Source of the DNA: Candidatus Poribacteria bacterium
GTDB lineage: Bacteria; Poribacteria; WGA-4E; PCPOR2b
Length of the DNA: 64,000 nucleotides
Assembly (NCBI GenBank): GCA_965208675.1
Contig: OZ242351.1
Location: forward strand, 3,712,001-3,776,000
Direction of reading: 5' to 3'
In this document: positions 7,957 to 52,515 of the stretch, piece by piece
Numbering within the stretch: the first letter of the stretch is position 1
Layout: each line of letters opens with the position of its first letter
Program-made: the position numbers and the translations under genes
The notes under the pieces: model-generated
The model's input: only the letters and a program-made list of their open reading frames with translations
Told to the model about the DNA's origin: nothing
The model's database searches: none

Positions 7957-8083
7957 TGCGTGGAAAGTTAAGACTATCGCACTCACTGTCCGTAGGATTT
8001 ATCTATTCGCTCAGTTGACCACTCAACCCAACCTACATTAACTAGATAGCGTGTCACCGAGTAGTGGCGGCAAGACTGCGAAT

Positions 8084-8860
8084 TTAATCGCCGGCAACCC
8101 GATACATTTCCTGTATCACTTCGCAGATGTCTGGAGCATCTGTAAGGAATTGATTCACTGCAAGTTCTATAAACTCATCGGGAATACCGTGCAGCGCCTC
8201 GGCGACGGGGCCCGCAATTGCAGCGAGCGTGTCGGCATCGCCGCCCAGGGAAACGGCATTTCGTACCGCATCTTCAAAACTCTCGGACTCCAGCGCACAT
8301 GTGATTGCCTGTGGCACCGTACCCTGACAAGTCTCGTCAAAAGAATAGCCGGGACGGATTTCGTCCACGGTTCGTCTCAGGTCGTAGCCGTATTCGACAG
8401 CGATAGTTTGGCGAATGTCGGTTGTTGTCTCCCCTTGATACGCGAGCCAGATAGCGTGTGTTGTTGCCCGTGCGCCCTTCATCCCTTCCGGATGGTTGTG
8501 TGTGATGGCGGTCACGTTGTCGGCGGCATTTAGCGCAGCGTCCAGGTCGTCTCGGTTGAGGAACGCCGCTGGCGATACGCGCATTGCCGCACCGTTGCCG
8601 TAACTTTCATAGGGTTCTGGATCCCAGAAAATCCACTGACCAAAAAATCCGCCGTATCCACGGCCCGGATGCCGTCGGCACCACTCCTGCATTGTCTGCG
8701 CGGGTGGAAGGTTATGCAATAGGATATCTGCAACAGCCGCCGTGCAAACCGAATCATCGGTAAAATCGCACTGCGGGTCGAAGAAAGTAAAATCTTTGGT
8801 TTTTATTCGATTCCACTCGTAGATTGAGCCGACAATGTCACCAATAATTGCACCTAACAT
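8084..8860 (-). CDS. ADP-ribosylglycohydrolase (DraG/ARH family)
   Basis: GAIIGDIVGS, FTDDS, SYGNGAAMR, ITHNH, GGDADT motifs. Confidence 0.93.
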   Translation of the reverse strand: MLGAIIGDIVGSIYEWNRIKTKDFTFFDPQCDFTDDSVCTAAVADILLHNLPPAQTMQEWCRRHPGRGYGGFFGQWIFWDPEPYESYGNGAAMRVSPAAFLNRDDLDAALNAADNVTAITHNHPEGMKGARATTHAIWLAYQGETTTDIRQTIAVEYGYDLRRTVDEIRPGYSFDETCQGTVPQAITCALESESFEDAVRNAVSLGGDADTLAAIAGPVAEALHGIPDEFIELAVNQFLTDAPDICEVIQEMYRVAGD

Positions 8861-8887
8861 TTTTCCTCCAGATTAAATTCCGCGCCT

Positions 8888-9322
8888 TTAATTTTCCTGC
8901 TCATCGTAAAAATCAGTTTCCCCTACGTATTCATCGTCATCAAGTTCGTCTTCCTCTTCGTATTCTTCGTATTCATCGGACCCCATCAAGATATCGAGTT
9001 CTCTAGGTCCCTCAATACTCATCTTACAGATCCAACCATCTCCCTCTGGTGAACGATTGATTAAATCTGGATTATCTTCAAGGGCGACGTTCACCTCGAT
9101 AATTTCCCCCGTAACGGGGGCATACACGGGAAAAGTACCTCCGTCGGCAACTTCAATCCTGCCGAATGTATCTTCCTGCTCAAGTTCGTCGCCAACCAAC
9201 GGAAGTTCCACGAATACAATGTCGCCATAGGCCTGTTGGGCACGTTCGGTGATTCCAACAACCCCTTCTGAGTTAATGACCTCAATCCATTCATGTGTGG
9301 TCGTATATTTTACTTCACTCAC
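8888..9322 (-). CDS. Glycine cleavage H-protein homolog lacking the lipoyl-lysine, with acidic tail
   Basis: YTTTHEWI, VGIT..AQ...GDIVFVELP, YAPVTGEI.EVN, PDLIN.SP.GDGWI; the usual ESVK is replaced by EVADGG. Confidence 0.85.
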   Translation of the reverse strand: MSEVKYTTTHEWIEVINSEGVVGITERAQQAYGDIVFVELPLVGDELEQEDTFGRIEVADGGTFPVYAPVTGEIIEVNVALEDNPDLINRSPEGDGWICKMSIEGPRELDILMGSDEYEEYEEEDELDDDEYVGETDFYDEQEN

Positions 9323-9551
9323 GGTTCAGCCTCCCGAAGTTTCGTATCCCCGGTACTCCCCTCTTTTAACGGCGTAGATAACTTCAATACCTGAACGGAT
9401 GTTCTGCTTATGCTAAAATATGTCTTCATGGTAGTGTATTCAATCTGCATTCGTGCAAAGTCCTTTTGCTATTCCGTGCAAAAAACCATCGCCTGTCTTT
9501 TGAGATTACACCATTGTGAAAATGCCGCCGCGTCGAATCCCGCCTTCGCCG

Positions 9552-10322
9552 TTAATACTTGGCGGCGAACACTGCGAGTTTCCCAGGGTTTTCCCATGCG
9601 AGTTGAACGTCAGAAAAACCCGCTTCTCGGAGCAATCGGTTCTGGGTCGCTACAGAAAGCGTAATGTCGTAGTTCCATTCAGCACGATTTCCACCGGGGA
9701 GATTAGAGATCCATCGGTTGAACCAATATAAGGTCTCCTTCTCACCCTCAGGAGAATTCGACTGGTCGCCCTCAATGTACAAGCCAGCCGGCCGCAGCGC
9801 ATTTCTCACTTTTTTGTAGACGCGAACCTTCTCCTCTGGCGGCAGATGGTGCATGGTAAGGGTTGAGATAGCATAGTCATATTCGTCCTCACCCAGCGGG
9901 AAGTCGAGTAATGACCCTTGAACGAGTTTCAATTGTGCGGCAAAGCTGTCGAACTTCGACCTCAGTTGCTCAAGCATTTTGGGAGCCAAGTCAATTGCAG
10001 TTACCTTAGCATTGGGGGCTCGAGAAAAGACGAATTCGAGTTGTATACCAGTGCCGCAACCAAGATCCAGAATGTCCACTTCCGCTTGAGTCATTGGGAT
10101 TGGACGCGCAACAGCTTGGTAAAACGGGTCATCAGACTCAACACCGAACTTCTTGTCCCATATGTCGGCGGTGTCATTGAAGCATCCGTACAGTTCCTCA
10201 ATACCGTCGCACATCCACTCCGGAACGTCCTCACCAATTGGTCCCGGCGCGATACGGAGTTCTTCTTTCCTCCGCAGAAACTCCTCGTCTACTTTGTTCG
10301 CATCGTGGGTTTGATTCGTTAT
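9552..10322 (-). CDS. Class I SAM-dependent methyltransferase (probable ATA start at 10322; first ATG at 10214)
   Basis: ILDLGCGTG motif I, AIDLAPKML, TMHHL; frame stays open upstream to an ATA 7 nt after AGGAG. Confidence 0.8.
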   Translation of the reverse strand: MTNQTHDANKVDEEFLRRKEELRIAPGPIGEDVPEWMCDGIEELYGCFNDTADIWDKKFGVESDDPFYQAVARPIPMTQAEVDILDLGCGTGIQLEFVFSRAPNAKVTAIDLAPKMLEQLRSKFDSFAAQLKLVQGSLLDFPLGEDEYDYAISTLTMHHLPPEEKVRVYKKVRNALRPAGLYIEGDQSNSPEGEKETLYWFNRWISNLPGGNRAEWNYDITLSVATQNRLLREAGFSDVQLAWENPGKLAVFAAKY

Positions 10323-10390
10323 GGTAATGCTCCTTTTAGCTCATCTGGTATGTATTAATCTTGCTTTGGTTCACATTACTATAGTCATTT

Positions 10391-11503
10391 TCAGTAACTC
10401 CGACCGATTGAAAAATAATACACCGATTGTCCTCGATCGATTCGTATTTGCTCCGCGGTATTAGCTTGAGGTTTAATCTGAGGCATGTAAGCAACGTTGA
10501 TATTCATCGTTCCCAGATTCATCCCCAATCCGACGGTTAATCCTTCAACCTTCCAAAGGCGGTGATCCACTTCAGTTTCTTCTGTCTCAAGATTGAAAAT
10601 CGAACCCATCCGGTTTTCAGTATGGCGCAGATAGCCGATTCGACCTGCAATACGCCCACGATACCAAACTTCTGCGCCGAAGCCGGTGCGGATGCCGGCG
10701 TCAAAAGGGGGATTGAGATCGAACGCAACGTGCACGGTGACATCTTTATAATGCCGCTGATAGGCTGCACCAAACAGCGCATCACGGCGAATTTTATCCG
10801 GAATCGAATCGTCAGAGAAGGACAATCCGTTGCTGAGATTTCTGACCAAAATCCCGATTCGGAGTTCCTTACCAAGCTGTTGCATCGCCCCCAAGTTATA
10901 GGCGTATCCGTGTCCGATGTGTCCTCGGTACTCGGACTCATGTACTTTAGATCTAATCCACTTCGCGTCTGCGCCGATGAACAATTCGCCGATCAGGCGT
11001 CTTCCGTAACCAACTCCAATTGCTAGATTATTCGCTGGGAAATTGTTTGTGGATTTGCCAAGGTGGTTGACACGGCTAAACCGCCCTTCATATTCAAAGG
11101 TGACATCAAAACCGATGACACCACCGTTATCCATGGGTGCAATATAGTTGATGGATTGAAACCCTGACGATCGGAGGTCATACCGCCCATAATCTTCATG
11201 CCGTTCAACATCATTCAGTTTGGAAACCACCGCGACTGTGCGAGGGAATCTCGCCGCGTGGGCAACGAATCGATTGCCCTCAATTAAACTAAGCCCCGCC
11301 GGATTGCTATTTAGCGCATTTGCACCTGTAATCGAACCGACAAAGCTACCGCCCATGCCCTGATGCGGCGCTGCGGTTAATCGCCGCAGAAATACATCGG
11401 CCGCAGATTGGGCTTCGCCATTCACATCTTCCGCGGACGCTAAGTTGAACGCGCCCAAAAGGCAAAACGCCAGAAAAAATCTGTTAACCCATTGACATCT
11501 CAT
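10391..11503 (-). CDS. Outer-membrane beta-barrel protein (PorV/UPF0164/FadL-like)
   Basis: Signal peptide, GMGG...NPAGL motif, amphipathic strands, C-terminal aromatic residue. Confidence 0.65.
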   Translation of the reverse strand: MRCQWVNRFFLAFCLLGAFNLASAEDVNGEAQSAADVFLRRLTAAPHQGMGGSFVGSITGANALNSNPAGLSLIEGNRFVAHAARFPRTVAVVSKLNDVERHEDYGRYDLRSSGFQSINYIAPMDNGGVIGFDVTFEYEGRFSRVNHLGKSTNNFPANNLAIGVGYGRRLIGELFIGADAKWIRSKVHESEYRGHIGHGYAYNLGAMQQLGKELRIGILVRNLSNGLSFSDDSIPDKIRRDALFGAAYQRHYKDVTVHVAFDLNPPFDAGIRTGFGAEVWYRGRIAGRIGYLRHTENRMGSIFNLETEETEVDHRLWKVEGLTVGLGMNLGTMNINVAYMPQIKPQANTAEQIRIDRGQSVYYFSIGRSY

Positions 11504-11541
11504 GACAATAGTAAAACCGATAAATGTTTTTTACACTGCGT

Positions 11542-11679
11542 TAGGTTCGGTTTCCTAACCGAACGGGTATTTGTTCAGTCCGAAGGCGCGGTTGGAAACC
11601 GTGCCTACCGGGTAAGAGTTTTAATGTTAGACACTGTATCTAGTTGTGGTTGTGCGGTGTAGTTGGAAACGGCACCTAC
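11542..11679. repeat. Cluster of three REP-like palindromes
   Basis: TAGGTTCGGTTTCCTAACCGAAC; GGCGCGGTTGGAAACCGTGCCTAC; GGTGTAGTTGGAAACGGCACCTAC; relatives at about 23515-23583 and 48716-48743. Confidence 0.75.
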
Positions 11680-11760
11680 TGAAACATGTATAGATTTTCA
11701 GGACTATTCGAAGAGTTGTATTGTCAAAACGGCGGTTGTTTGATGGAGGTCATTATGAGA

Positions 11761-12207
11761 CTATTGCGATTCGCCCCAAAGGATGACATTTGCCACCGCA
11801 TAGTTGTCCGTATGCGCCAGCGTTACAAAGGTTTGGGAGACACCCAGCGAATCTGCGTGTTGACGTGCCCTGCCGTTAAGGATCAACTCTGGTTTACCGA
11901 GTTCACCTGTAATGACCGCCGCATCGTGCCACCACATGCCAGGCCTTAACCCGGTTCCAAGAGCCTTAAAGGCGGCCTCTTTCGCCGCAAATCTGGCGGC
12001 AAGCCTTTGATAGCGTAAATCTGTGCCCCCACAGTATTTTATTTCTTCCGGTGTGAAAATTCGCTTTTCAAAGCGGTCACCCCACCGTGAACTCGCAGAT
12101 CTTATGCGTGCGACCTCTGCGATATCAACACCAATGCCTCGAATAAATACGGGATTAGTGCTTTTTTTAATGCTTTGTAAATCGGGCGCCAAATCCTGGA
12201 CCCTCAA
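11761..12207 (-). CDS. acpS: Holo-ACP synthase
   Basis: GIGVDI, RFAAKEAAFKALGTG, GKP, TLAH motifs. Confidence 0.93.
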   Translation of the reverse strand: MRVQDLAPDLQSIKKSTNPVFIRGIGVDIAEVARIRSASSRWGDRFEKRIFTPEEIKYCGGTDLRYQRLAARFAAKEAAFKALGTGLRPGMWWHDAAVITGELGKPELILNGRARQHADSLGVSQTFVTLAHTDNYAVANVILWGESQ

Positions 12208-13064: not shown

Positions 13065-13066
13065 TA

Positions 13067-14938: not shown

Positions 14939-15252
14939 AACACATGAACCTTTCTTTTTAGTTCAACAGCAGAACGAGCTAAAAACAGCTTTAAATTGCA
15001 GGGCGTGACAATTCTTTTACGCCGCCATCCGATTTTAAGTCGAGGTCGGATCAGGCAATCAAAAAAGTATACCAAATCCTTTTTGAAATATCAATGGAAA
15101 TTAGAGTATCCGCGAGTACGCTACGCTGGGCAACGGATTAAGCGCAGTTGCGGTGGCATAGCCGTTGAACACACTAACTCCGTATGATTAGTTAGGACAC
15201 TGAGCCGTTAAAGAAGGTTTATGCCGTTACAACCTATCGGGACGATTCGGTG

Positions 15253-18254: not shown

Positions 18255-18260
18255 ACACTT

Positions 18261-18442: not shown

Positions 18443-18479
18443 TTGAAGACTATCGCCCTCACTATTCGTTCGGTTGATC
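18443..18479 (+). repeat. GATC-ended tag repeat (reference copy)
   Basis: TTGAAGACTATCGCCCTCACTATTCGTTCGGTTGATC joined to half-REP CGTCTCCCAC; about 13 related copies in the window. Confidence 0.85.
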
Positions 18480-18557: not shown

Positions 18558-18681
18558 GTAAGTTGAGTTTCGCCGTTTACGCAACCCAACTTACATTTTC
18601 TATTCGATCGCTTGATCTAAACCCAACACACTGTTCTGAATGTAAGAAAACCCCCCAACCCCCCTTGTCAGGGGGGCTTTT
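18558..18681. repeat. REP cluster with a truncated tag
   Basis: GTAAGTTGAGTTTCG..CGCAACCCAACTTAC hairpin, tag fragment 18599-18617, and CCCCCCTTGTCAGGGGGG hairpin. Confidence 0.65.
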
Positions 18682-21878: not shown

Positions 21879-22017
21879 AGAAAATTATCGCCCTCGCCAT
21901 TCGCTCAATATATCGTTGGGTTGCGCTACGTTCTTGTTCGAGTTGATGCAGTATCGCATAAGTGGGTTCAACTGGAGTGGGAGACATATTTAATTGAATC
22001 CGCGTTACCCAACCTAC
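21879..22017. repeat. Degenerate tag fused to a half REPIN
   Basis: AAAATTATCGCCCTCGCCATTCGCTCAATATATC followed directly by GTTGGGTTGCGCTAC...TTACCCAACCTAC. Confidence 0.7.
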
Positions 22018-32862: not shown

Positions 32863-32965
32863 GATCAATTGAGCCAATAGCGAGGGAATCATCCGACCGA
32901 ATAGGGAGGACGATATATTTTATAGCCTTCGAAGACTATCGCCCTCCCTATTCGGTCGGTTGATC
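32863..32965. repeat. Three tag copies (two tandem, one inverted) forming a hairpin
   Basis: GATCAATTGAGCCAATAGCGAGGG + AATCATCCGACCGAATAGGGAGGACGATA facing TATCGCCCTCCCTATTCGGTCGGTTGATC. Confidence 0.8.
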
Positions 32966-36317: not shown

Positions 36318-36384
36318 GTAGGCTGGGTTGAGCGAAAGGCGAAACGCAACGATCAATCGACGGAACGGAGAGCGCTATAGTTTT
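36318..36384 (+). repeat. Complete GTAG-REP followed by a tag
   Basis: GTAGGCTGGGTTGAGCGAAAGGCGAAACGCAAC|GATCAATCGACGGAACGGAGAGCGCTATAGTTTT. Confidence 0.8.
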
Positions 36385-36399: not shown

Positions 36400-38208
36400 T
36401 TAGGGTTTAAGATTCCACAATAGAATTGTACCGTCATCACTCCCGCTTGCGAGGGTCTGTCCATCAGGGCTAAACGCTACGCTTTCGACGCTACTTGTAT
36501 GCCCTGTGAAGTTGCGGAGTTGCCTGAACGTGCTAGCGTCCCATAGGACGATCTTATTCATATACGTACTTGCAATTCTGTTACCATCAGGACTAAAGAC
36601 GACGTTACCGAACCCCGTGGTTTCGTCTGTGAATGCGCGGACATGTCTTCCAGTGCGTGCATCCCATATACGGATAGTGTCGTACCAACTCGCGCTGGCA
36701 ATTTTTTTTCCATCAGGACTAAATGATATGTTATAGACATCGGACGTGTGCCCGGTAAGCGTACGAACGTGGCTGCCCGTGCGACCATCCGTTAGACGAA
36801 TGGTGTTATCGTGACTACCGTACGCGATAGCTTTTCCATCGGGGCTAAACACCACAGTCGTTACAATGTTCGTATGCCCTTCAAGTATTTTCAGGAGCGC
36901 CGTGGTACCGAAATCCCATAAGCGGATGGCGCCGTCGTAATCACCGCTTACGATAGTTTTCCCATCGGGGTTAAAGGCTAGGGTTCGGACATCTTCCCAA
37001 TGCTCCAATAGGGTGTGTAGGAGTTTACCTGTGCTTGCCTCAAATAAAGAAATGGCGCCGTCATAGCCCCTAAGGGGGACGCCACCACCACATGCGATAG
37101 TTTTTCCATCGGGACTGAAGGCTACGCTCTTGACAGAATTCGTATAGCCATCAAGTGTGCGAAGGTGTTTTCCGGTGTTATCATCCCATAGGCGGATGGT
37201 GTGGTCGTAACTCGCGCTTGCGATGGTCTTTCCATCGGGGCTGAACGTCACGGTTTTGACACTACCCGTATGCCCTTTGAGGGTGTGGCGTTGTCTGACC
37301 GTATTAGCATCCCATAGGATGACCTCATCCATATCGGTACTTACGATTGTGTTTCCATCAGGACTAAAGATTAGATTATCGGCGCCGACTTTATGCCCTG
37401 TAATCGTGTGAAGGTGTTTGCCTGTGTTAATATCCCATAAGCGGACGGTGTAGTCCTCATGCTCTGCTGCACTCGCGAGCGTCTGTCCATCTGGACTGAA
37501 GGCTACGCAATTCACTATACCCGTATGCCCTAAGAGAACTCGGAGCAGTCCGCCGGAGCTTGCGTCCAACAAAACGATGACGCCCTCTATGCTGTCAGTG
37601 TGTTTAGAGTAATAGTGGCCACCTTTTGCAATTGTGTTTCTATCGCGACTGAATGCTACGCTATGGATAAAAGCCGTAGACCCCGCTAGAACCGTAGATT
37701 CTGCGAGCGTGCGGAGGCGGGAGCCTGCACCAACATCCCAGTAGTGGCATGTGCCGTCCTCGCATGCGCTTGCGATGGTTTCACCGTCCGGACTAAACGC
37801 CACGTTATTGATTGTATCCGTACGCGCTACCAGCGTGCTGAAGGGTTCCTCTGTGTCAACATCCCACAAACGTATCGTTTGGTCCTCGCTACCACTTGCG
37901 ATTTTGCGGCCGTCGGGGCTAAATGCCACACTGTTGACACTATCCGAATGCCCGGTGAGGAGGGTAATTTCACGGTATGTCGCCGTGTCATAAAGCCAAA
38001 TTCCGATTGAGGTTGCAACCGCCAGACGCGTGCCGTCTGGAGAATACTGCATGGCCTCTATCTCGCCTTTGCCCAAGCGAAGTTTTGCGCCTTCGGGAAG
38101 ATTGAGACGTGTATAGTCTTCTTGGGCAAGGGTATTCGGTAAGCATAGTGTGGAAACGAAGAGTAGAGTCAATAGAGTGAATTTAATCGGCAGTAATCGG
38201 TTTTTCAA
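36400..38208 (-). CDS. Secreted WD40-repeat protein
   Basis: Signal peptide, LPEGAKLRLGKG cap, about 13 GH...V.FSPDG..IAS.S.D.TIRLWD repeats; TTG 38208 aligns with paralog starts. Confidence 0.93.
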   Translation of the reverse strand: MKNRLLPIKFTLLTLLFVSTLCLPNTLAQEDYTRLNLPEGAKLRLGKGEIEAMQYSPDGTRLAVATSIGIWLYDTATYREITLLTGHSDSVNSVAFSPDGRKIASGSEDQTIRLWDVDTEEPFSTLVARTDTINNVAFSPDGETIASACEDGTCHYWDVGAGSRLRTLAESTVLAGSTAFIHSVAFSRDRNTIAKGGHYYSKHTDSIEGVIVLLDASSGGLLRVLLGHTGIVNCVAFSPDGQTLASAAEHEDYTVRLWDINTGKHLHTITGHKVGADNLIFSPDGNTIVSTDMDEVILWDANTVRQRHTLKGHTGSVKTVTFSPDGKTIASASYDHTIRLWDDNTGKHLRTLDGYTNSVKSVAFSPDGKTIACGGGVPLRGYDGAISLFEASTGKLLHTLLEHWEDVRTLAFNPDGKTIVSGDYDGAIRLWDFGTTALLKILEGHTNIVTTVVFSPDGKAIAYGSHDNTIRLTDGRTGSHVRTLTGHTSDVYNISFSPDGKKIASASWYDTIRIWDARTGRHVRAFTDETTGFGNVVFSPDGNRIASTYMNKIVLWDASTFRQLRNFTGHTSSVESVAFSPDGQTLASGSDDGTILLWNLKP

Positions 38209-38463
38209 GGGAGAATTTCCCTTCAATTGTAGGATTTGTTAGGTATAGCGAAGTGCGGCAATTGGCTCCAAACCTAGTGAAGGCTTGAAAACTATCGCCT
38301 GCGTTGTCGGCTCAATTGATCATTCAACTCAATTTACAAAAACGGGAGACATTTTCATTATTGACCGTAAGTCAATTGGTAAGTCGTCTGTATTGTGTAT
38401 ATGAATTTGCTTATTATATATTAAGTTATACTTAAAAGCAAGAAATTATTTTGAACAGTTGCA

Positions 38464-40520: not shown

Positions 40521-40653
40521 GGGGGAATTTCCCTTCGATTGTAGGATTTGTTGGGTATAGCGGGTGCGTGCAGCAATTGCCCCTGAAAACTAGTGAAGGC
40601 TTGAAAACTATAGCGCAGAATTTCTATAGCTTTCGTTAATGACTCCATTGATC

Positions 40654-42040: not shown

Positions 42041-42046
42041 AAGAAA

Positions 42047-42547
42047 TTATCTTCTAAGCATTTCGGTGTGTGTTTTCCTATCTGATTCAAAGTGTCTAAC
42101 ATCAACAGTTGCTACTATATCGTTGCACAACGCATTGATATCAGGGCCTGACACTAAAAACAGATCTTTGAAGAAGCCACCAGATTCATTGTGGATATAC
42201 GTGACATATTTACTGGCACTCTCAATATCGGTTGAAACTGGTACGGTTTCCCATGACGGAGGCAAACCAAAACTTTGGGAATAGGCAACTGCTATTTCAT
42301 GGCGTCGTTCATTTCTTCGGGCGATGTGTACGATATGAATCATACGCCTTGGATTTGAATAGGCAATTTCCACATCACTCATGTTTCGTAACGTTCGATT
42401 AAGATAGCTTGTTATTTGAGTTTTGTGCGTATCCGATGCAACTTCAACCGAAACGCGAAAAGTATAATCCCTCCCCGAAGCTACCGGGTGCGCCACAGTT
42501 AATACCATAGCCAAAACGAATATCGAACCTGCAATACGTGACATCAT
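42047..42547 (-). CDS. Secreted hypothetical protein
   Basis: AGGAG SD, signal peptide, 166 aa, no family recognised. Confidence 0.7.
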   Translation of the reverse strand: MMSRIAGSIFVLAMVLTVAHPVASGRDYTFRVSVEVASDTHKTQITSYLNRTLRNMSDVEIAYSNPRRMIHIVHIARRNERRHEIAVAYSQSFGLPPSWETVPVSTDIESASKYVTYIHNESGGFFKDLFLVSGPDINALCNDIVATVDVRHFESDRKTHTEMLRR

Positions 42548-43098
42548 TTTCTCCTAATTAAGTTGGTGGCGGCGAATGGCTCCTTCCCGTGTTGCTAATG
42601 GTAAGCCCTAGAAATGCTAACAACCACTAGTAAGTTATGAGTGTAACTAGGGAGAAGCGCACGCATCCGCCATAAGTTATTAATGGGCTTATTTGCGACA
42701 AAGCCCGGTTTCTATTAACAGTTGTCGCGTGTAGCGGCGTTAATAATCGTCGTTGAAAAATTTCCCCCAAGGAGGCAATAGTTTCTTCTGGAGCCATTTC
42801 GCCTGTTCTTACACGCTCGACGACCGCAAAGCACTCATAAGGAGTTTTGGACATTTAATGCAATACCTAGCTTCTTTCAACCCTTGTTGCATGTGACGCC
42901 TGAGATCAGAACTACTTGTCGCTACGGAGCATTTCGGTAAGTCCGCGAGCGCTAGCTAGAGAAGGTTAGGTATCAGTTGCTGTCTATTGAATTTCCATCG
43001 CATTCGCTATTCGCTCCATTGATCGCCGCGCCCAACCTACAACTGTAGGCATCAGCTTCATATTTCCCATATGGGATTCATCACTGTCCACGTTCTGG

Positions 43099-44637
43099 CT
43101 AAAGCTCCCACAACAGAATTGTGCCGTCCCCGCTCCCGCTTGCGAGAGTCATTCCATCGGGACTGAAAGCTACGCTATCGACATAAGATGTATGCCCGGA
43201 GAGTGTGCGGAATTGTTCGCCCGTGACTGCATCCCATAAACGGATGGGGTTGTCCCCAAAACCACTACTGCTGGCGAGAATCTTTCCATCGGGGCTAAAC
43301 GCTACGTTCATGACGGGGCCTTCATGTCCTGTAAGTGAGTGAAGGTGTCTCCCCGTGATTGCATCCCATAATCGGATGGTCTTGTCATCGCTCCCACTGG
43401 CGATAGTGTGTCCATCTGGACTAAACGTTGCGCTTAAGACAGTCGAAGTGTGCCCCACAAGTGTGTGAATGTGCCTGCCGGTACAAACATCCCATAAACG
43501 GAGGGTGCCATCCCAACTTCCGCTGACGAGCGTGTGTCCATCTGGACTAAACTTTACGCAATTGACAGTAGATGTATGCCTTGTAAGAGTGCGGAGGTGT
43601 CTACCCGTACCAACATCCAATAGGATGGTTTTCGACGAATGCCCAGTGGCGAGCGTGTGACCGTCTGGGTGAAACGCCAGATTGTCGGCACTAGTGCGCG
43701 TTTCGAGTGTGCGGAAGTTGCTGCCCGTGCTAACATCCCATAGGATGATTTCCGCCAGACTCTGGCTAGCAAGAATCTGTCCGTCGGGGCTATAAGCAAC
43801 GCTACTGGCACTATATGTATGCCCTGTGAGTATGCGGTTGATGCCGCCCGTGTTAACATCCCATAGGATGGTTTCCCCCGGACTCTGGCTGGCGAGAATC
43901 TGTCCGTCGGGGCTAAAAGCAACGCTTCGGACACCGGATGTATGCCCTGTAATTGTTTGGATGTGGTTGCCCGTGCTAACGTCTAATAGGGAGGCACTGT
44001 GCACACTTCCAATAGCGATAGTGTTTCCATCGGGACTAAATGCCACGCTATTGACATCGCGCGAATGTCCCGTGAGAGTTCGGAGATGTTTACCCGTGCG
44101 TACATCCCATAAGCGAACGGTATGGTCGTAATTACTTGCGCTTGCGATGGTCTGTCCATCTGGACTGAACGCTACGCTCTTGACACTCGACTCATGTCCT
44201 GGGAGGGTATGGTGGCGGCTGCCTGTGCTTGCGTCCCAAAGAACAACGGTGCCGTCTTGGCTTCCGCTTGCAATTATGAATCCATCTGGATTAAATGCTA
44301 CACTATAAATAATATACCGATGCCCTCTGAACGTGCGGAGATGTCTACCCGTGTTAACATTCCAAAAACAGATGGTTCCGTCCCCACTCCCGCTTACAAT
44401 GGAGTTTCCATCTGGACTGAATGCTACGCTATTGACACCACTCGTGTGCCCTGTGAGGAGTGCGAGTTCTAGACAGGTTTCAGCATCATACAGCCAAACT
44501 CCAATAGAACTTGCAACCGCTAGACGTATGCCGTCCGGAGAATACTGTATTTCATTTATTTTGCCTTTTCCCAAGCGGAGTTTAGCACCTTCGGGCAAAC
44601 TGAATTTGGTATAGTCTAGTGCAAGTGGGTTTTCCAT
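43099..44637 (-). CDS. WD40-repeat protein without signal peptide
   Basis: LPEGAKLRLGKG cap and about 12 WD40 repeats; N-terminus only MENPLALDY. Confidence 0.93.
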   Translation of the reverse strand: MENPLALDYTKFSLPEGAKLRLGKGKINEIQYSPDGIRLAVASSIGVWLYDAETCLELALLTGHTSGVNSVAFSPDGNSIVSGSGDGTICFWNVNTGRHLRTFRGHRYIIYSVAFNPDGFIIASGSQDGTVVLWDASTGSRHHTLPGHESSVKSVAFSPDGQTIASASNYDHTVRLWDVRTGKHLRTLTGHSRDVNSVAFSPDGNTIAIGSVHSASLLDVSTGNHIQTITGHTSGVRSVAFSPDGQILASQSPGETILWDVNTGGINRILTGHTYSASSVAYSPDGQILASQSLAEIILWDVSTGSNFRTLETRTSADNLAFHPDGHTLATGHSSKTILLDVGTGRHLRTLTRHTSTVNCVKFSPDGHTLVSGSWDGTLRLWDVCTGRHIHTLVGHTSTVLSATFSPDGHTIASGSDDKTIRLWDAITGRHLHSLTGHEGPVMNVAFSPDGKILASSSGFGDNPIRLWDAVTGEQFRTLSGHTSYVDSVAFSPDGMTLASGSGDGTILLWEL

Positions 44638-44891
44638 GGGGAGAATTCCATTGGATTGTAGGTTTAGCGTGGGTGCAATACACCCCCAATACTAGTGAAG
44701 GCTTGAAAACTTTCGCACAGGATTTTCTATCGCTTCTGTTTGGTCGGTTGATCCCTTATCAAGGGGGAGGATTTTTTGGGGCTCCTCTAGCTTCCTCCTT
44801 ATCAAGGGGGAGGACTACGCGACAATAGCAGGAAACAGGGGAAACCATCGCTTTGACGTAAAACAGGATGTGAATCAAAGTCCAATTGTTC

Positions 44892-46007
44892 CTATTGCGA
44901 CTTGCCTCTGGCGGTGATGTCCCAGATGGACTCGACGGTGTCGTTTCGGAGGGCGTAGTAGCGGTTGTGGAGGTTTACGGTGGTGCAGCAGTGTGTGGGC
45001 ACGATTTCGATTTTGTCGCCGGGTTGGAGATTGACGTCCCCTTGCGCAGTCATTTTGCCGTGTTCTTCGGAAAGCCCAATCATCTCCAAGCCTGCAATCC
45101 CTGCGGGCTGCGGGATTCCGAACTCCTTAGCCAGGACTTTCAGCCCGGCATCAACAATTATGCGCGAGGGATTCGGACGACTCACTACAGCGGTCAACAC
45201 GGTCAACGAACTATCGAAGCGGTTGCCAATCCCTTCAACCTCTCCGTAAGTCGAATCCATGAAGATGTAAGAGCCCGCTTGGATTTCCGTAATGTCTGGG
45301 TGCGCGCCGGTAATTGCATAGGTGCCCGTGCCTCCGCCGCTCATAATCTTGACCGGTACGCCGTTCCGTTCGAGCACGTCTTTGGTCTCAACCAGTAGTT
45401 CGACGGATTCGTCCGTCTGTTTTTTCCGTTCAGCGAATGACGGTATGGCGACGGTATGTCCCTCATAACCCATCAACCCTTCAAATTGAAGCCCATTGGA
45501 TTTCAAAACGAGACGCGCCAAGTCGAGCGTGGGTTTCCCGGGTTGCGTGCCGCAGCGGTTCATACCGGTATCGACTTCGATGAGTATGCGCAGCGTTACG
45601 CCTTTTGCTTCCGCGGCAGCCGAAAGTTGCGCGACGTTATGCGGGTCGTCGACAGCGACCATAATCTCCGAATGACCGGCAAGGTTGACCAGCCGAGCAA
45701 TCTTCGCCGCGCCAATAATCTGATTGGCGATGAGCACATCGCGGATACCTGCGTGGACCAAGGATTCAGCTTCACCGAGTTTGGCGCAGGTTATGCCGAT
45801 TGCGCCCGCTTCGATCTGTTTATGCGCGATGATTGGGGTCTTGTGCGTTTTTGCGTGCGGGCGAAGCTCCGCATTGACGGATTTGAAGAAGTCCGCCATT
45901 TTCCGGATATTCGCCTCCATAATGTCCAAATCAATTAGCAGCGCCGGGGTGTCAATTTCCGATTTGGGGGCGCCAATGAGTGTATCGAGATGCGGTGACG
46001 ACATCAA
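44892..46007 (-). CDS. DSD1/D-threonine aldolase family PLP enzyme (alanine racemase fold)
   Basis: TPALLIDL, RPHAKTHK, MNRCG, MGYEGH, GGGTGT, SEEHG, HCCTTVNL. Confidence 0.9.
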   Translation of the reverse strand: MMSSPHLDTLIGAPKSEIDTPALLIDLDIMEANIRKMADFFKSVNAELRPHAKTHKTPIIAHKQIEAGAIGITCAKLGEAESLVHAGIRDVLIANQIIGAAKIARLVNLAGHSEIMVAVDDPHNVAQLSAAAEAKGVTLRILIEVDTGMNRCGTQPGKPTLDLARLVLKSNGLQFEGLMGYEGHTVAIPSFAERKKQTDESVELLVETKDVLERNGVPVKIMSGGGTGTYAITGAHPDITEIQAGSYIFMDSTYGEVEGIGNRFDSSLTVLTAVVSRPNPSRIIVDAGLKVLAKEFGIPQPAGIAGLEMIGLSEEHGKMTAQGDVNLQPGDKIEIVPTHCCTTVNLHNRYYALRNDTVESIWDITARGKSQ

Positions 46008-46016
46008 TTCGTCTCC

Positions 46017-47024
46017 TTAAAGCTGTTTAACGGGATTGGAGAGTACGCCGAGTTCATCGACTTCGATTTGAACGACATCGCCGGGCGCCAACGGCAACTC
46101 ATTCGGGACGATGATGCCGGTGCCGGTAGAGACTACGGTGCCGATAGGGATGGGGTTGTCTCGGCAGAGAAATTCGGTTAGTTCTTCAAATTTCCATTTA
46201 ATTTGAGACGTGTTCACGTCGCCCTCGTAGAGCAACTCGCCGCTGCGGATGATGGAGCATTTGATATTCAGATTGTAGGGGTCGTCGATTTCGGACGGTG
46301 TGACGAACATGGGACCCAACGCGCAGCAACCGTAGAATACCTTCGATGGGGGCAGGTAAAGCGGATTTTCACGTTCGATGTCCCAAGCGGAGACATCGTT
46401 ACAGATTGTATATCCGACGATTTCTCCGTCCGCGCCAAGGATATAAGCCAATTCAGGCTCAGTTGCAGTGAGTTTAGAGTCGCTCCGAATACCGATAAAG
46501 TCGTTCGGACCGGCGCATCGGGACTTTGTTCCTTTAAAGAAGATTTCCGGGCGGTTTGAGTTATAGACGCGGCTGTAAATGTCCTGTTCACTGTCATCAT
46601 CCCGCATTTCGGCGCTGCGTTTGTATGTCACACCGCAGCCCCACACCTCTGGGGGATCAATCGGCAACAAGAGGTGAGGCACGTTCAAATCCGGCGAAAC
46701 ATTGAGATCCGATAGTTTGAGCTCGTCTTTATTGCGGCTAGTTTGGTCAGGGTGAACGGATGGCGTTGAACCGCTAACGAAACGTTCTTGAATATCTGCC
46801 AGCAGAACGCCCATGCTAACTCCCTCTTGGTAAGAGAGTTTAATCAGTTCAAGGACATCCGGCGCTTCGTCGCTGGTAACATCGATAATTACTTCGTCGG
46901 GCTCCAACCGACGCGTCATCAAGCCACGGTCGCCGTCGCTGGCGATATCGGTAGCCAAGTCGCCTCGCGTTACGATGCCGACGCGTTTGCCAAGGCCAGG
47001 TTCATAGAATTGTACGAGTTTCAT
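46017..47024 (-). CDS. Fumarylacetoacetate hydrolase family (2-keto-3-deoxy-pentonate dehydratase-like)
   Basis: EVWGCGVTYKRS, RPEIFFK, EPEL, NDVSAWDIERENPLYLP.SK, STGTG. Confidence 0.88.
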   Translation of the reverse strand: MKLVQFYEPGLGKRVGIVTRGDLATDIASDGDRGLMTRRLEPDEVIIDVTSDEAPDVLELIKLSYQEGVSMGVLLADIQERFVSGSTPSVHPDQTSRNKDELKLSDLNVSPDLNVPHLLLPIDPPEVWGCGVTYKRSAEMRDDDSEQDIYSRVYNSNRPEIFFKGTKSRCAGPNDFIGIRSDSKLTATEPELAYILGADGEIVGYTICNDVSAWDIERENPLYLPPSKVFYGCCALGPMFVTPSEIDDPYNLNIKCSIIRSGELLYEGDVNTSQIKWKFEELTEFLCRDNPIPIGTVVSTGTGIIVPNELPLAPGDVVQIEVDELGVLSNPVKQL

Positions 47025-47181
47025 TTTTTCCCTTAGTTTAAATCCAATCAGCGACTGTAAGATTTCGCTTTGAAGTCGATGAATTGTAACATAATCCGGC
47101 GAATTATATCAACAACAAAAGCGGCGTGGGTTCTCGCCTGCGTATACTTTCTTTGTTGTCATTGAGGAATCGACTGACCGA

Positions 47182-47367
47182 CAATCGAGGGTGGGAAGCC
47201 TCTCCCACAAATCCGATGGTGCAGTCGAGGCTAGGAAGTCTCGCGTACGTGCCGATGAGACAATCGAGGCTGAGCAGTCTCTCCTGCTAACCGATGAAGT
47301 AATCGAGGTTGTGAAGCCTCTTCCACCAATCCGATGATGCAATCGAGGCTAGGGAGCCTCTCCTACA
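47182..47367 (-). repeat. Tandem array of five GTAG-type REP units (39-40 nt period)
   Basis: Units ATCGAGG-N7-GYCTC..c.ac-N-CCGATG start at 47182, 47222, 47261, 47300 and 47340. Confidence 0.85.
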
Positions 47368-47426
47368 GAACAAATGAGAGACGATTAGGTCGGTGCGGTA
47401 GCCGGGCGGGAGTGTGCAAAAAACGC

Positions 47427-47455
47427 TTGCTTCTTTTTTTTATCTGTTATATACT
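47427..47455 (+). promoter_or_regulatory. Probable nuo operon promoter
   Basis: TTGCTT-17 nt-TATACT upstream of nuoA. Confidence 0.55.
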
Positions 47456-47590
47456 ATCCACTTGACTTTGTGAAAAAAAGCTACAAGCTAGGGGCGAAAG
47501 TTGGTTGAACGAAAGAGTCGCGATTCGGAGATCGCTCCTACAGTGAAGCACCAAGCAAGGTGACATAACAACTGGAGTGAGGGATAAAAG

Positions 47591-48001: not shown

Positions 48002-48005
48002 GCTT

Positions 48006-48650
48006 ATGCGATGGTGGTTTAGCAAATCGACTGATTTACGTCAATCCCCTGAAATTCAAAGCGGGTCCCTCGAAGAGGCTGTCCACCGCAATGTGCTTTT
48101 GGCGCGTTTACAGGATTTGCTGGCTTGGGGGCGCAAGAACTCCATGTGGCCCTTTAACTTCGGTCTTTCGTGCTGTTTTGTAGAAATGGCAACTAGCATT
48201 ACGAGCAAATACGACATTGCACGGTTCGGCGCCGAAGTGATTCGCGGTACGCCGCGCGAAGCCGATGTCATGGTTATTGCCGGCACCCCGTTTATCAAAA
48301 TGGCGCCGATAATAAAGCGGCTTTACGAACAGATGATGGAACCGCGCTGGGTTATATCCATGGGTTCATGCGCCAATTCCGGCGGAATGTACGATATCTA
48401 CAGCGTGGTTCAGGGCGTTGACAAGATTTTGCCGGTTGATGTGTATGTACCGGGCTGCCCACCAAGGCCTGACGCCTTCATGGAAGGGATAGTCGAGTTG
48501 CGGGGTGCAGTTGGGTCGGAACAGCGGCCGTTGAGTTGGTTTGTTGGTCCGCAGGGTGTAGTAAAGCCGGACATGCCCGCTCGACGCGACTTGAAACGCG
48601 ATGAGCGGCGGCAAGTTGATACGCTGCGTTCCCCTAATGAAGTGCGGTAA
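48006..48650 (+). CDS. nuoB: NADH-quinone oxidoreductase subunit B
   Basis: [26 protein letters not shown]. Confidence 0.97.
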
Positions 48651-48783
48651 CTACATACGGCGCGGAATCCCGACTATAGAATTTATAGTAAAACCAAAAA
48701 TTATTTATGCGGTCGGTAGGCGCGGTTGGAATCCGCAACTGCCGTGACGTGTGTAAATATGAATGGAATAGACTATAACTGCG

Positions 48784-50526
48784 ATGAGCGATTCACCCCT
48801 CCTTATTGAAGAACTTCAAGGCAAATTCGGAACTGTTTCAGCACAAGCAACGGCTGACGGCGTGCCGCTCCTTTGGACGTCGAAAGATACAATTTGCGAT
48901 GTTCTGCGCTATCTCAAAACAGAGTTGGATAAGCCGTACCGCACGCTGTACGATCTCACGGCTATTGACGAGCGCGTCCGAACCAACCGCCAAGATCAGC
49001 CGGATAGCGACTTCACGATTGTATATCACCTCCTTTCCTATGAACGCAACGAAGACATTCGTCTCAAGGTTGCACTTCAAGATGAATACCCCTCCATCCC
49101 GACGGTGACCGATATTTGGCCCTCTGCAAATTGGTACGAACGCGAAGTTTGGGATATGTTTGGCGTCACATTTGAAGGGCATCCCCACTTGAGGCGCATT
49201 CTAATGCCTCCAACTTGGGAGGGTCATCCACTCCGCAAGGAACACCCTGCGCGCGCTACCGAGATGGGCGAGTTTGAGTTGCCGGATGAAAAACAGGACT
49301 TAGAACAAGAGGCGCTCCAATTCCGACCCGAGGATTGGGGAATGGAGCCGCAAGGGGAAAACGGGGATTTTATGTTCCTTAACCTCGGTCCCCAGCATCC
49401 GGGTACGCATGGCGTGCTCCGCTTTGCGCTTCAACTCGACGGGGAGGAGATTCTTGATGTGGTTCCTGACATCGGTTACCACCATCGAGGGGCGGAGAAG
49501 ATGGGGGAACGCCAATCTTGGCACACGTTCATCCCGTACACGGATCGGATTGACTACCTCGGCGGCGTCATGAATAACCTCGCCTATGTGTTGGCTGTGG
49601 AAAAATTGGCGGGCATTGAAGTGCCGGAAAGAGTCAAAGTTGTGCGCATAATGATGTCCGAAATATTCCGCATAGCGAGCCATCTGGTTTGGTACGGCAC
49701 GTTCGCTCAAGATATAGGTGCACTGTCACCGGTGTTCTATATGTTTAACGACCGCGAACGCATTTTTGAAATTGTTGAAGCGATTTGCGGCGGGCGGATG
49801 CATCCGAGTTGGTTTCGCATTGGAGGTGTGGCGCAAGATTTACCCAATGGTTGGGACAACCTGATTCGAGAATATTTGGACTATTTACCGCGCCGACTCG
49901 ATGAATACGACAAGATGGTGATGCGGAACCGTATCTTCAAGAAACGCACACAAGGAGTTGGCGCATATACCGTGGATGAAGCGATTGAATGGGGCGTGAC
50001 AGGGCCGGGGCTGCGAGCGTGCGGCTTTGAGTGGGATTTCCGAAAGAAGCGCCCGTATTCCGGTTACGACCAGTTCGAATTCGATATACCGACCGCCCAA
50101 GCCGGGGATTGCTATGATAGAGCTGTTGTCCGAATTGAAGAGATTCGCCAGAGTTTACGGATTATCGAACAATGTATGAACAATATGCCTTCGGGGCCGT
50201 ACAAGTCTGACCATCCACTGACAACGCCCCCGCTCAAAGAGCACACAATGGAAGATATTGAGACGCTGATTAACCATTTTCTGAATGTGAGTTGGGGTCC
50301 GGTTATCCCGGCGGGCGAAGCTTTTATCGGTATTGAGGCGACGAAAGGGAACAACGGCTACTATCTGATTAGCGATGGCAGCACTATCCCTTATCGCGTA
50401 CGGATACGCGCGCCGTCGTTTCCTCACATGCAGATGCTGCCGCTAATTAGCCGGCGTGCGATGGTTCCGGATTTATTAGCGATATTGGGTGCTATGGATT
50501 TTGTGTTAGCGGACATTGACCGTTGA
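48784..50526 (+). CDS. nuoCD: Fused NADH-quinone oxidoreductase subunit C/D
   Basis: [17 protein letters not shown] (C) fused to [14 protein letters not shown]...DFVLADIDR (D). Confidence 0.97.
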
Positions 50527-50583
50527 CGATAGAAAATTTAGAGGGCAAGATACTAACTTGCCATTCCGTATTGAGATAACGCA

Positions 50584-51051
50584 ATGCTGACAGAAGAAGA
50601 ACGGCGAGAAATCGAGGAAGAGTTTGCGCATTTTGATTATAAGCAGGCGGTAAGTGTTGATGCATTGAAGATTGTCCAAAAACATCGGGGCTGGGTGTCG
50701 GATGAAAGCATCAAGGACATCGCTGAACTTTTGGAGATGTCCCCGGCAGAGTTGGACGGCGTTGCTACATTCTACAATTTGATTTACCGCAAGCCGGTCG
50801 GAAAGCATGTGATTCTGCTCTGCGATAGCGTGAGTTGTTGGGTCATGGGGTGCGATCGGATGCGTGCGCATTTCACAAAACGCCTCGGCATTGATTTCGG
50901 AGAGACGAGTGAGGACAATGAGTTTACGCTGTTGCCGATGCAGTGCCTCGGCACCTGCGATCATGCGCCCGCGATGATGATTGATGAAACGCTTCATAGA
51001 GATTTGGATGAAGACAAGATTGACGGAATCATTGAGCGATACAAGGGATAG
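50584..51051 (+). CDS. nuoE: NADH-quinone oxidoreductase subunit E
   Basis: VATFY, CDSVSC, CLGTC. Confidence 0.96.
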   Translation: MLTEEERREIEEEFAHFDYKQAVSVDALKIVQKHRGWVSDESIKDIAELLEMSPAELDGVATFYNLIYRKPVGKHVILLCDSVSCWVMGCDRMRAHFTKRLGIDFGETSEDNEFTLLPMQCLGTCDHAPAMMIDETLHRDLDEDKIDGIIERYKG

Positions 51052-51056
51052 TCGGC

Positions 51057-52355
51057 ATGAGCGAACCTATCAGGGAAAAACCGCTTACGAAAAACATTTC
51101 ACCCGGCGAGGCGCCGTTAGATTTAAAGCAATATGAGAGCGGCGGCGGCTATCAGGCTGTCCGCAAAGCAATGACGGAGATGGCTCCAGAGGACGTTACC
51201 GGCGTTGTCAAAGAGGCGAATTTAAGGGGCCGCGGCGGCGCGGGATTCCCGACGGGCATGAAATGGAGTTTTGTTCCTATGGGGGATAGGGCGCCTAAGC
51301 GCAAGTATCTCGTTGCCAACGCCGATGAAATGGAGCCGGGAACGTTTAAAGATAGACTTCTTTTAGAAGGCGATCCGCATCAGTTCATTGAGGGGATGAT
51401 TCTCGCGGCATATGCAATCCAAGCGGACGTTGCTTACATTTTTCTACGGTGGGCTTACAAAAAGGCGGAAGCGTTATTGGGAAAAGCAATCGCTGAAGCG
51501 TACGATGCCGGATTCCTCGGTAAAAACATCCTGGGATCGGGGTACAATCTAGAGCTTTACCTACACACAAGCGCTGGCCGCTATATCTGCGGCGAGGAGA
51601 CTGCGCTCATGAATGCATTGGAGGGCAAGCGGCCGATTCCCCGTACCAAACCGCCCTTTCCACAGACCAGCGGATTGTGGGGCAAGCCGACGATTGTACA
51701 AAATGTAGAGACACTCTGCAACGTACCGCATATTGTTGCCAATGGTGCTGATTGGTATAAGGGTTTGAGTTTTAGCGGCAACGGCGGAACAAAACTCTTT
51801 GGTGCAAGCGGCAAAATTAAGCGGCCGGCGATTTGGGAACTTCCCCTTGGAACGCCGATGCGAGAGCTACTGGAGGAACATGCGGGTGGAATGCAGGATG
51901 GATTGAAGTTCCGCGGCGTGCTGCCCGGCGGCGCATCCACAGATTTCTTGGTCGAGGAGCACTTGGATTTGCCGATGGACTACGAACCCGTGATGGAAGC
52001 GGGAAGCCGTTTAGGGACGGGTACCATGGTTATTCTGGACGATAAGACGTGCCCAGTGGGTATGATTCGCAACCTTGAACTCTTCTTCACGCGTGAATCT
52101 TGCGGTTTTTGCACGCCGTGCCGCGACGGCATTCCTTGGACGCATCGTCTATTGGATGCCATCGAATCAGGGGACGGTAAGCCTGAAGATATTGATAACC
52201 TCGAGTTCATAATTAATACAATTACTCGAATGCTTGGGCGCACGTTTTGCGCTTTTGCGCCGGGCGCCGTGGAGCCTTTACAGAGCGGGTTGAAGTATTT
52301 CCGGGATGATTTTGAGCAGCATATCAGGGAGAAACGATGCCCGTATGCGTCGTAG
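51057..52355 (+). CDS. nuoF: NADH-quinone oxidoreductase subunit F
   Basis: GRGGAGFPTG, NADEMEPG, YICGEETA, CGFCTPCR. Confidence 0.97.
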   Translation: MSEPIREKPLTKNISPGEAPLDLKQYESGGGYQAVRKAMTEMAPEDVTGVVKEANLRGRGGAGFPTGMKWSFVPMGDRAPKRKYLVANADEMEPGTFKDRLLLEGDPHQFIEGMILAAYAIQADVAYIFLRWAYKKAEALLGKAIAEAYDAGFLGKNILGSGYNLELYLHTSAGRYICGEETALMNALEGKRPIPRTKPPFPQTSGLWGKPTIVQNVETLCNVPHIVANGADWYKGLSFSGNGGTKLFGASGKIKRPAIWELPLGTPMRELLEEHAGGMQDGLKFRGVLPGGASTDFLVEEHLDLPMDYEPVMEAGSRLGTGTMVILDDKTCPVGMIRNLELFFTRESCGFCTPCRDGIPWTHRLLDAIESGDGKPEDIDNLEFIINTITRMLGRTFCAFAPGAVEPLQSGLKYFRDDFEQHIREKRCPYAS

Positions 52356-52462
52356 TGACTAACACGTGATTCGCATAAAATTTTAACAGGACTTACGCAA
52401 ATTGAGCAGGAAAAGGAAATATTGGACTTAAATTGTGGTTATTTCAGTGTTTTAAACTCCCT

Positions 52463-52515
52463 AAGACTATCGCACTCACTATTCGTTCGCTTGATCCCTT
52501 ATCAGGGGGGCTTTT
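52463..52515 (+). repeat. Tag fused to a half CCCC/GGGG hairpin inside the nuo operon
   Basis: AAGACTATCGCACTCACTATTCGTTCGCTTGATC|CCTTATCAGGGGGGCTTTT. Confidence 0.8.

Follow-up and report, generated by a model that had tools for sequence, protein, structure and literature searches.

What kind of DNA is a 34-nt sequence that recurs between the genes of a sponge symbiont, ends in GATC and abuts hairpins, and how did it get there? The question is raised by a 64,000-nt stretch (hereafter the window) of a Candidatus Poribacteria genome (assembly GCA_965208675.1, contig OZ242351.1), which covers positions 3,712,001-3,776,000 of a single 4.89-Mb contig; this contig is the whole assembly, with a completeness of 96.4%, and we call it G000. 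An initial annotation, made from the letters of the window, had listed 13 copies of this short sequence, here called the tag, fused to hairpins resembling repetitive extragenic palindromes (REPs), and had read them as scars of DNA synthesis primed at a cleaved hairpin. All 13 copies are present where they were listed (Table 1). Our analysis shows the tag to be a family of very small non-coding repeats that, to judge from sequence comparisons, is mobile or was so until recently, apparently ranking among the smallest mobile elements known. We tentatively read it as a REP-like single-strand micro-element moved by an HUH enzyme, a reading to which we give a probability of roughly 0.45.

The tag is abundant throughout the genome. 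A profile built from the window copies returned 390 matches in G000 at E ≤ 10, 238 of them near full length at E < 0.01, and an 18-nt core with up to two mismatches occurs 420 times, compared with 20 times on one strand of the shuffled genome. The core matches group into 297 arrays, 255 of which begin with a unit of at least 30 nt. Scanning the genome with a profile and its relatives with a strict pattern, much as the initial annotation had suggested, brought out a family of hundreds of copies in G000 and in 13 other genomes. Each unit consists of a head, a 17-nt segment and a TTGATC tail; the head consensus is A-A/G-A/G-A-CTATCGC in G000 and ATYT-CTATCGC in the other genus rich in tags (g11). 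The tail reads TTGATC in 179 of the 255 arrays and TTGATT in 29. The fixed GATC end described earlier was thus borne out, but the ragged continuum described for the other end was not, as unit lengths are discrete: 255 units are 30-34 nt long, 57 are 23 nt long (positions 12-34), a further class is 18 nt long (positions 17-34), and only 18 units in all fall in between. More than one unit is found in 60 of the 297 arrays, the longest unit standing first in 58 of these. In 46 of 47 pairs a unit and its neighbour come from different subfamilies, and the arrays are thus not local duplications.

Most arrays lie in spacers (219/255, in a genome that is 84% coding by a crude map of open reading frames), and tags between co-directional genes are more often antisense than sense to them (99 versus 46). 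The cumulative GC skew of G000 bottoms out at 3.27 Mb and peaks at 4.79 Mb, and no clear pair of replication arms can therefore be defined. GATC itself is scarce in this genome: base composition predicts 19,101 occurrences, and 12,026 are seen (ratio 0.63). It nevertheless forms the end of the tag. We also observed two runs, at 4002006-4008793 and 4381414-4392986, in which tags of the same strand recur at intervals of 1-2.7 kb, separated by genes that lie on the opposite strand. Near-identical sequence, followed by a REP and tags, forms the end of at least two of these genes, and the runs look like tandem paralogues that have brought their spacers along.

In the segment between head and tail, paired positions change together. 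Across a set of 431 distinct tags drawn from every genome available, corrected mutual information was highest for the pairs 16:24, 12:28 and 13:27; pair 17:23 came sixth, a weak signal, and the other pairs among the top six joined neighbouring head positions. We then scored the nested structure 7-10:30-33, 12-13:27-28, 16-17:23-24 on an alignment of 87 copies (50 distinct). On the 50 distinct rows, 89.8% of paired cells could pair, compared with 76.5% after shuffling, and 57 cells were changed on both sides, compared with 21.4 in shuffles, none of 500 of which reached as high a number. The covariation score was 0.327 and fell to 0.003-0.055 when the partners were slid by 1-3 columns. Position pair 16:24 occurs as GC, CG and AU and pair 12:28 as CG, GC and AU, while the letters between the pairs are constant: TC/TC and the TATTC loop never vary. 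Free folding of the tag finds no stable structure, with DNA folds of 0 to -2.2 kcal/mol (z-scores +0.3 to +1.6, no better than shuffles) and an RNAalifold consensus of -0.08 kcal/mol. Because nested pairs covary yet the free hairpin is unstable, these results suggest that the segment, too weak to fold alone, acts as a single strand of DNA or RNA held by a protein.

The two ends of the tag meet their surroundings in different ways. The 12 host letters just after the tail occur at least five times in the genome in 106 of the 255 arrays, compared with 24 of 255 for the 12 letters just before the head, which upholds the earlier observation that the tag is fused by its GATC end to REP-like hairpins. 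Tabulating both junctions, again a suggestion of the initial annotation, gave an exact TTGATC end, which abuts other repeats at the loop or 5' foot of their hairpins, and a fuzzy opposite end. In 215 of 255 arrays the host sequence resumes after the tag with C or G, followed by C or T. On the right, the tag is flanked most often by the GTTGGG arm of a GTAG-type REP (35 arrays), by the loop side of the other arm of this REP (31 arrays, with 8, 6 and 6 more lying further in) and by C-rich hairpins of the CTCCTTGGTAAGGAGG type (26 arrays). A register of 16 nt between the joint and the end of CTAC, claimed for positions 8020, 38321, 40653 and 43024 of the window, holds at all four and is one of the two commonest classes in the genome (GCTCTACCC type, 31/255; the GTTGGG type makes up 35/255). 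Counted by a 10-mer at up to one mismatch, the GTAG-type REP itself (arms GTTGGGT and ACCCAAC, then CTAC) has about 670 copies, and about 14% of them have a tag tail just upstream; specifically, the word CCCAACCTAC occurs 670 times, 92 of them with a tag tail within 14 nt upstream. A perfect stem directly follows the tag in 28 of 255 arrays and in 25 of 255 nearby controls, the stems being broken. As the initial annotation had noted, neither target duplication nor terminal inverted repeats are seen for the tag itself.

Four lines of evidence say that the tag, as far as sequences can tell, inserts by itself into other repeats and into one copy of an insertion sequence (IS). We joined the left and right flanks of each of the 255 arrays and searched the genome with them, which gave matches resembling empty sites for 13 arrays, in six host repeat families with tagged and untagged copies. 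In these, 2-8 host letters at the loop or foot of a hairpin have given way to the tag and to 1-8 odd letters on its left side, and the tail joint is exact. A relative carries a 38-nt unit inside its copy of a multi-copy IS gene, whereas seven other copies (four in G000, two in G002 and one in G003) have 3-4 other letters at that place. The REP beside an IS200-type gene holds a unit of this kind at three of seven loci (one of two copies in G026, and those in G050 and G023), where three letters are replaced, and is untagged in the other copy of G026 and in G053, G051 and G000. Finally, at 32.9 kb of the window, G003 has 30 extra nt between the head and the body of a tag that is a single unit in G000 and G001. 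The replacement of hairpin letters proposed earlier is thus confirmed in the sense that a few letters in or beside a hairpin are replaced, with one joint exact and the other, which has 2-6 odd letters, untidy.

The extra unit of G003, together with the composition of the arrays, fits the idea that nested arrays arise by insertion of the tag at the foot of its own paired segment. Within the 26 nt upstream of an array, head-like words number 0.32, 0.67 and 1.00 per array for arrays of one, two and at least three units (n = 161, 48 and 4), compared with 0.15, 0.15 and 0.00 in a control stretch further upstream. Head remnants thus pile up on the left of nested arrays, and bodies of 23 or 18 nt on the right. 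The TGAAGRCTTG extension reported for some window copies is such a head remnant. Reiterated AAGACT heptamers were considered as a sign of slippage and rejected, as a period of 7 is found in only 4 of 213 tags and AAGACT words upstream are better read as head remnants.

Not all copies were made where they now stand. The tag at 52463-52496 lies inside a miniature inverted-repeat transposable element (MITE) of a family with inverted ends. An 88-nt query taken from the MITE part 5' of this tag finds nine places in G000, including the window copy, two of which are tagged at the same internal place, and in contigs from three other metagenome runs of sponges, 29 to about 38 other letters link 52364 to 52532. 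The family is about 150 nt long, with ends AGGACTTACGCAA ... TTGCGTAAGTCCT and an internal C5-loop-G5 hairpin (window copy 52375-52531). Further MITEs, bounded by inverted ends and a CTAA duplication, hold two or three tags (regions 104 and 105), and a 158-nt unit of REP plus tag is present in three tandem copies in a relative (region 168; L078 4414-4760) and as one untagged copy in G000 (4421230-4421509). Some copies, including that at 52463-52496, thus came inside a whole MITE and inherited their joints instead of gaining them on the spot. The tag is not the end of a longer IS or intron; within MITEs its position is internal. A comparison of 1.28 Mb between G000 and G002 found equal lengths for 28 of 58 and 27 of 51 tag clusters; of the 54 unequal ones, we inspected the 19 that differ by 8-100 letters (11 by 8-70 and 8 by 8-100), a comparison that we weigh below. 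Metagenome contigs end at tags and therefore show no joints of single tags.

The family has a narrow distribution. An exact-pattern scan of 185,579 species genomes gave at least 102 matching stretches, and all 80 that had titles among the matches listed were metagenome-assembled genomes of Candidatus Poribacteria. We therefore counted a strict pattern, with up to one mismatch, in 176 Poribacteria genomes. All four genomes of the genus of G000 (g1) have 162-180 matches each, and all ten of g11, which belongs to another family, have 325-798 each; a single genome (G057) has 14, five others have one or two each, and the remaining 156 have none. The reversed pattern gave no match in any of the 176. 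High copy number is thus confined to two genera (14/176 genomes), many of them assembled on one to a few contigs. In G057, a bin of 130 contigs from genus g5, the 19 loose matches are all on contigs C72, C83, C91 and C116, 11 of them within 6 kb of C72; as these are g11-type variants, they possibly represent mis-binned DNA or a transferred island, and we do not use them as evidence. Carriage by phages was considered and dropped, as viral contigs contain no tag match.

Which enzyme might move such a sequence? A word ahead of a paired segment that can pair with the tail, with a cut at or just after the tail's own word, is the layout of REPs and of the ends of IS200/IS605 transposons. The tag resembles this layout, as ATCG ahead of its paired segment can pair with TGAT of the tail. 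We therefore propose, because of the paired segment, this pairing, the strand-specific insertion and the lack of inverted ends or duplication, that an HUH enzyme is responsible. A Y1 (HUH) tyrosine transposase of the kind of IS200 or of REP-associated tyrosine transposases (RAYTs) would cut at or just after TTGAT of the tail, the 3' end of the tail would then be transferred to a cut hairpin in single-stranded DNA, and the opposite end would be closed untidily by repair. Candidate genes exist. G000 has four Y1 genes: one of the IS200/IS605 kind (69.5 bits, cut-off 55), two RAYTs (132 and 85 bits, cut-off 80) and one below the cut-off. Y1 genes were also found in all five other tag-bearing genomes tested, and at 14 of 18 Y1 loci of g11 a tag lies within the 3.3 kb fetched. 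The IS200/IS605-type gene (G000:C1:2029831-2030328; L127 1462-1962) lies between inverted repeats of another type of REP (GCCCCAGCGGGGC with GACAGGTG), which also stands beside IS200-type homologues in the nine loci inspected.

Searches for other enzymes gave little. The reverse-transcriptase family RVT_1 has no match in G000 or G002, each with about 170 strict copies, which weighs against a reverse transcriptase as the mover in these two tag-rich genomes; G026 has a single match below the family cut-off (25.1 bits), and the sole match of G050 that reaches the cut-off does so only when neighbouring in-frame matches are added and contains two stop codons. A TnpB partner was looked for and none was found. 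A search for Y2/IS91 transposases found no match, the controls likewise giving none. The REP arms look like the core sites of integron attC, an idea that we rejected because no integron integrase was found above the cut-off (best TIGR02249 match 41 bits, cut-off 265).

The HUH reading rests on anatomy and the lack of a rival enzyme, not on a link to a gene, and a number of observations weigh against it. No Y1 clade tracks the tag: in a tree, none is present in all four g1 genomes. The IS200-type gene occurs in 102 of 159 genomes of the order, most of them untagged, and is missing from G002 and G003, while the RAYT at 190 kb occurs in one of the three other g1 genomes and in two of ten g11 genomes. 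Co-occurrence was thus tried for two Y1 genes across the order and for the family in five genomes, and none follows the tag. The initial annotation had suggested a search for a full-length master copy of the tag beside a RAYT gene, among others; none of the Y1 genes found has tags on its flanks in the place of REPs of its own, the three RAYT-like genes of G000 have no tag within 1.5 kb, and the tags beside IS200-type genes were inserted into a REP other than the one that belongs to the gene. The proximity of tags and Y1 genes may be indirect, both sitting in repeat-rich spacers. The behaviour of the tag also departs from that of IS200/IS605 elements, since target letters are lost on insertion and the left flank has no constant word (the commonest 4-mer, GGAG, is found in 14 of 183). 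The data fit DNA as well as RNA, and either strand. Comparison of orthologous loci with and without the tag showed the extra unit of G003 at 32.9 kb and, among the 19 inspected differences between G000 and G002, no clean gain or loss of a tag alone; these were replacements of segments or composite elements. Tag activity may be old in this pair, with little sign of recent events.

Other explanations have to be set against these points. That the tag has no mobility of its own, and is a module of mosaic spacers spread by hitch-hiking in MITEs and REP clusters, recombination, conversion and template switching, its hairpin joints marking stalled forks, finds encouragement in the hitch-hiking described above: the tag at 52463 arrived with a whole MITE, MITEs with inverted ends and CTAA duplications carry two or three tags, the 158-nt unit of REP plus tag was triplicated in a relative, and G000 and G002 differ mostly by replacement of whole spacer segments. 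We regard it as rather unlikely, because the lone 38-nt unit in the coding copy of an IS brought no flanking repeat with it, a like type of unit occurs in unrelated hosts, neighbouring units differ in subfamily in 46 of 47 pairs and compensatory changes call for selection on the paired segment. Target-primed copying, in the manner of short interspersed nuclear elements (SINEs), is what the initial annotation had favoured: a polymerase would hold a tag template of RNA or DNA by its paired segment, next to the template's 3' end, and extend the 3' end of a cut hairpin along it, and copying would stop early or jump before the ends are rejoined. The exact tail joint, the untidy other joint with its few odd letters and the loss of 2-8 target letters would follow from this, as would the position of partial units on the tail side of the full unit in 58 of 60 arrays and, through the need for a template-binding polymerase, a covarying segment beside the fixed end. 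It is nevertheless unlikely, given genomes with 160-800 strict copies in which RVT_1 is missing (G000 and G002) or weak or broken (G026 and G050), unit lengths that are discrete and form no ladder, and nested arrays that are explained by insertion into a resident tag with remnants on both sides. The short dedicated template of the initial annotation finds no support, given the outcome for RVT_1 in G000 and G002, the discrete unit lengths, and many subfamilies with compensatory changes, which need many source copies.

A more exotic reading is a system for patching hairpins, in which an unrecognised enzyme confined to these two genera would cut hairpins extruded by repeats and write a structured 34-nt template into the break; the fixed end would then be set by priming or ligation at the cut and the other end by repair. 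We think this decidedly unlikely, but if true it would be a new class of element that lives on breaks in DNA structures rather than on a sequence target. Still less probable, and in our view very unlikely, is a site for a nucleoid, regulatory or RNA-processing protein of the host, with a copy number reached by selection rather than transposition. The location of 219 of 255 arrays in the spacers of an 84%-coding genome, the 99-to-46 antisense bias among co-directional genes and the contrast between invariant unpaired and covarying paired letters would all suit such a site. A core function is hard to square with a patchy presence, in two genera of different families and hardly at all in their sister genera, and copies are interrupted, nested and decayed, one of them within an IS gene.

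Within the window, the motif given by the initial annotation in degenerate (IUPAC) letters matches 4 of the 13 copies with up to three mismatches (0.00 expected in 100 shuffles), and an nhmmer profile built from eight of the copies recovers 11. The two that it misses, 40604-40653 and 44706-44753, are composites of a head remnant and a second unit. An Rfam scan of the window gave no match at the gathering score and a tRNA scan found nothing. Between 35500 and 47500, the four congeners differ by rearrangement or replacement of a minus-strand run of genes, two of which code for large WD40 proteins (36400-38226 and 43099-44637), and REPs and tags are present in each of its spacers. Contigs from three metagenome runs join position 42045 to 47518, skipping 5472 letters.

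Table 1. Tag copies in the window and places of the MITE family that carries one of them. Positions are those of the window, except in the last row (positions in G000).
Feature	Position	Strand	Found by	Other genomes or contigs
Interrupted tag (positions 1-18, 15 extra letters, 18-nt unit) fused to REP arm	7970..8020	+	profile	also in G002; block absent in G001 and G003
Full 34-nt tag, GAAGACTTG head remnant ahead	18446..18479	+	motif, profile	common to G002
19-nt 3' unit after REP arm, left edge of a block of about 133 nt	18599..18617	+	profile	block missing in G002
Degenerate full tag joined to GTTGGG arm of REP	21881..21914	+	profile	
24-nt body unit after the tag at 32887..32920, minus-strand array	32863..32886	-	profile	locus varies among four congeners
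Full tag, first unit of minus-strand array	32887..32920	-	profile	
Full tag, inverted relative to 32863..32886 and 32887..32920	32932..32965	+	motif, profile	G003 with extra 30-nt unit between head and body
Full tag joined to GTTGCG arm of intact REP	36351..36384	-	motif, profile	
Degenerate tag, TGAAGGCTTG head remnant, fused 16 nt from end of degenerate REP arm; upstream of WD40 gene	38288..38321	+	profile	
Composite: head remnant and ATTT-CTATAGC-type unit, fused to REP arm at 16-nt register	40604..40653	+		
Divergent-head tag fused to REP arm, 16-nt register	42991..43024	+	profile	
Composite: head remnant and GATTTT-CTATCGC-type unit, fused to C-rich hairpin (CCTTATCAAGGGGG)	44706..44753	+		
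Full tag within MITE	52463..52496	+	motif, profile	
MITE-sized block carrying tag	52365..52531	+		missing in G001, G002, G003 and contigs of three other sponge metagenome runs
Other places of this MITE family in G000	1031015, 4293625, 680768, 3603251, 2351053, 3582179, 502830, 2682741		88-nt query	

A tag that moves by itself would count among the shortest mobile DNA known; the way in which such tiny elements move is, to our knowledge, unsolved. The family makes this problem unusually tractable. Its hundreds of copies in 14 genomes and near-absence from about 160 relatives mean that a comparison of gene content could name the enzyme, and its clear structural target (the loops and feet of hairpins, its own included) and covarying segment can be tested with oligonucleotides. 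In this uncultured sponge symbiont the tag also shapes the spacers and the variable regions of WD40 genes, and it breaks short-read assemblies at each copy.

How does the tag compare with known systems? The initial annotation did not recognise it as a described element, and this needs qualifying: closely similar very small dispersed repeats, also nested, are reported from cyanobacteria. The small dispersed repeats (SDRs) of heterocyst-forming cyanobacteria, reportedly described by Elhai et al. in 2008 (Genome Res 18:1484), are said to be 21-27 nt long, nested and of a structure with compensatory changes, and no enzyme is known to move them. Like these repeats, the tag measures tens of nt, is dispersed in hundreds of copies in a narrow clade, is nested in itself and in other repeats and has a structure backed by compensatory changes. 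It differs from them, the likeness being one of description, in its poribacterial host, its length (34 nt with a 23-nt core, against 21-27 nt) and its exact joint at the loops or feet of hairpins, with few target letters lost. Among the literature on small dispersed repeats, titles and abstract openings held nothing on Poribacteria, and what was listed on REPs in Poribacteria concerned marine bioactive compounds; both statements extend to these titles and openings and to nothing wider.

The ends of IS200/IS605 elements share with the tag the lack of inverted ends and of target duplication, the strand-specific insertion and a subterminal paired segment with a pairing word, and the first five of the tag's last six letters are the target word of ISDra2. 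The tag differs in having no constant 5' target word, in losing target letters, in consisting of one 'end' alone and in having no TnpB. MITEs are likewise short, non-coding and multi-copy, and several of their families carry the tag, which is three to ten times shorter than they are and lacks the inverted ends and duplication that its carriers have. With the target-primed reverse transcription of SINEs and long interspersed nuclear elements (LINEs) the tag has in common that the 3' joint is fixed and the 5' side variable, that target deletions are small and that a stem-loop lies close to the 3' end, but two tag-rich genomes have no reverse transcriptase and the lengths of the units are discrete. 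The resemblance to REPs, to their paired forms (REPINs) and to bacterial interspersed mosaic elements (BIMEs) with RAYTs, described in part by Bertels and Rainey (2011; PMC3116915), lies in the hundreds of short copies outside genes, each with a paired segment and conserved unpaired letters. In addition, RAYT and IS200-type Y1 genes are present in the tag-bearing G000, and the tag forms mosaics with true REPs much as BIME linker motifs do. The differences are that its paired segment is far weaker than a REP stem and forms no stable imperfect palindrome, that no cognate Y1 gene is flanked by the tag or co-occurs with it, and that the tag inserts into REPs and is not one of them. The nearest described things are the nested SDRs of cyanobacteria and the REP/BIME mosaics with their RAYTs, here in a new phylum and with a definable structural target.

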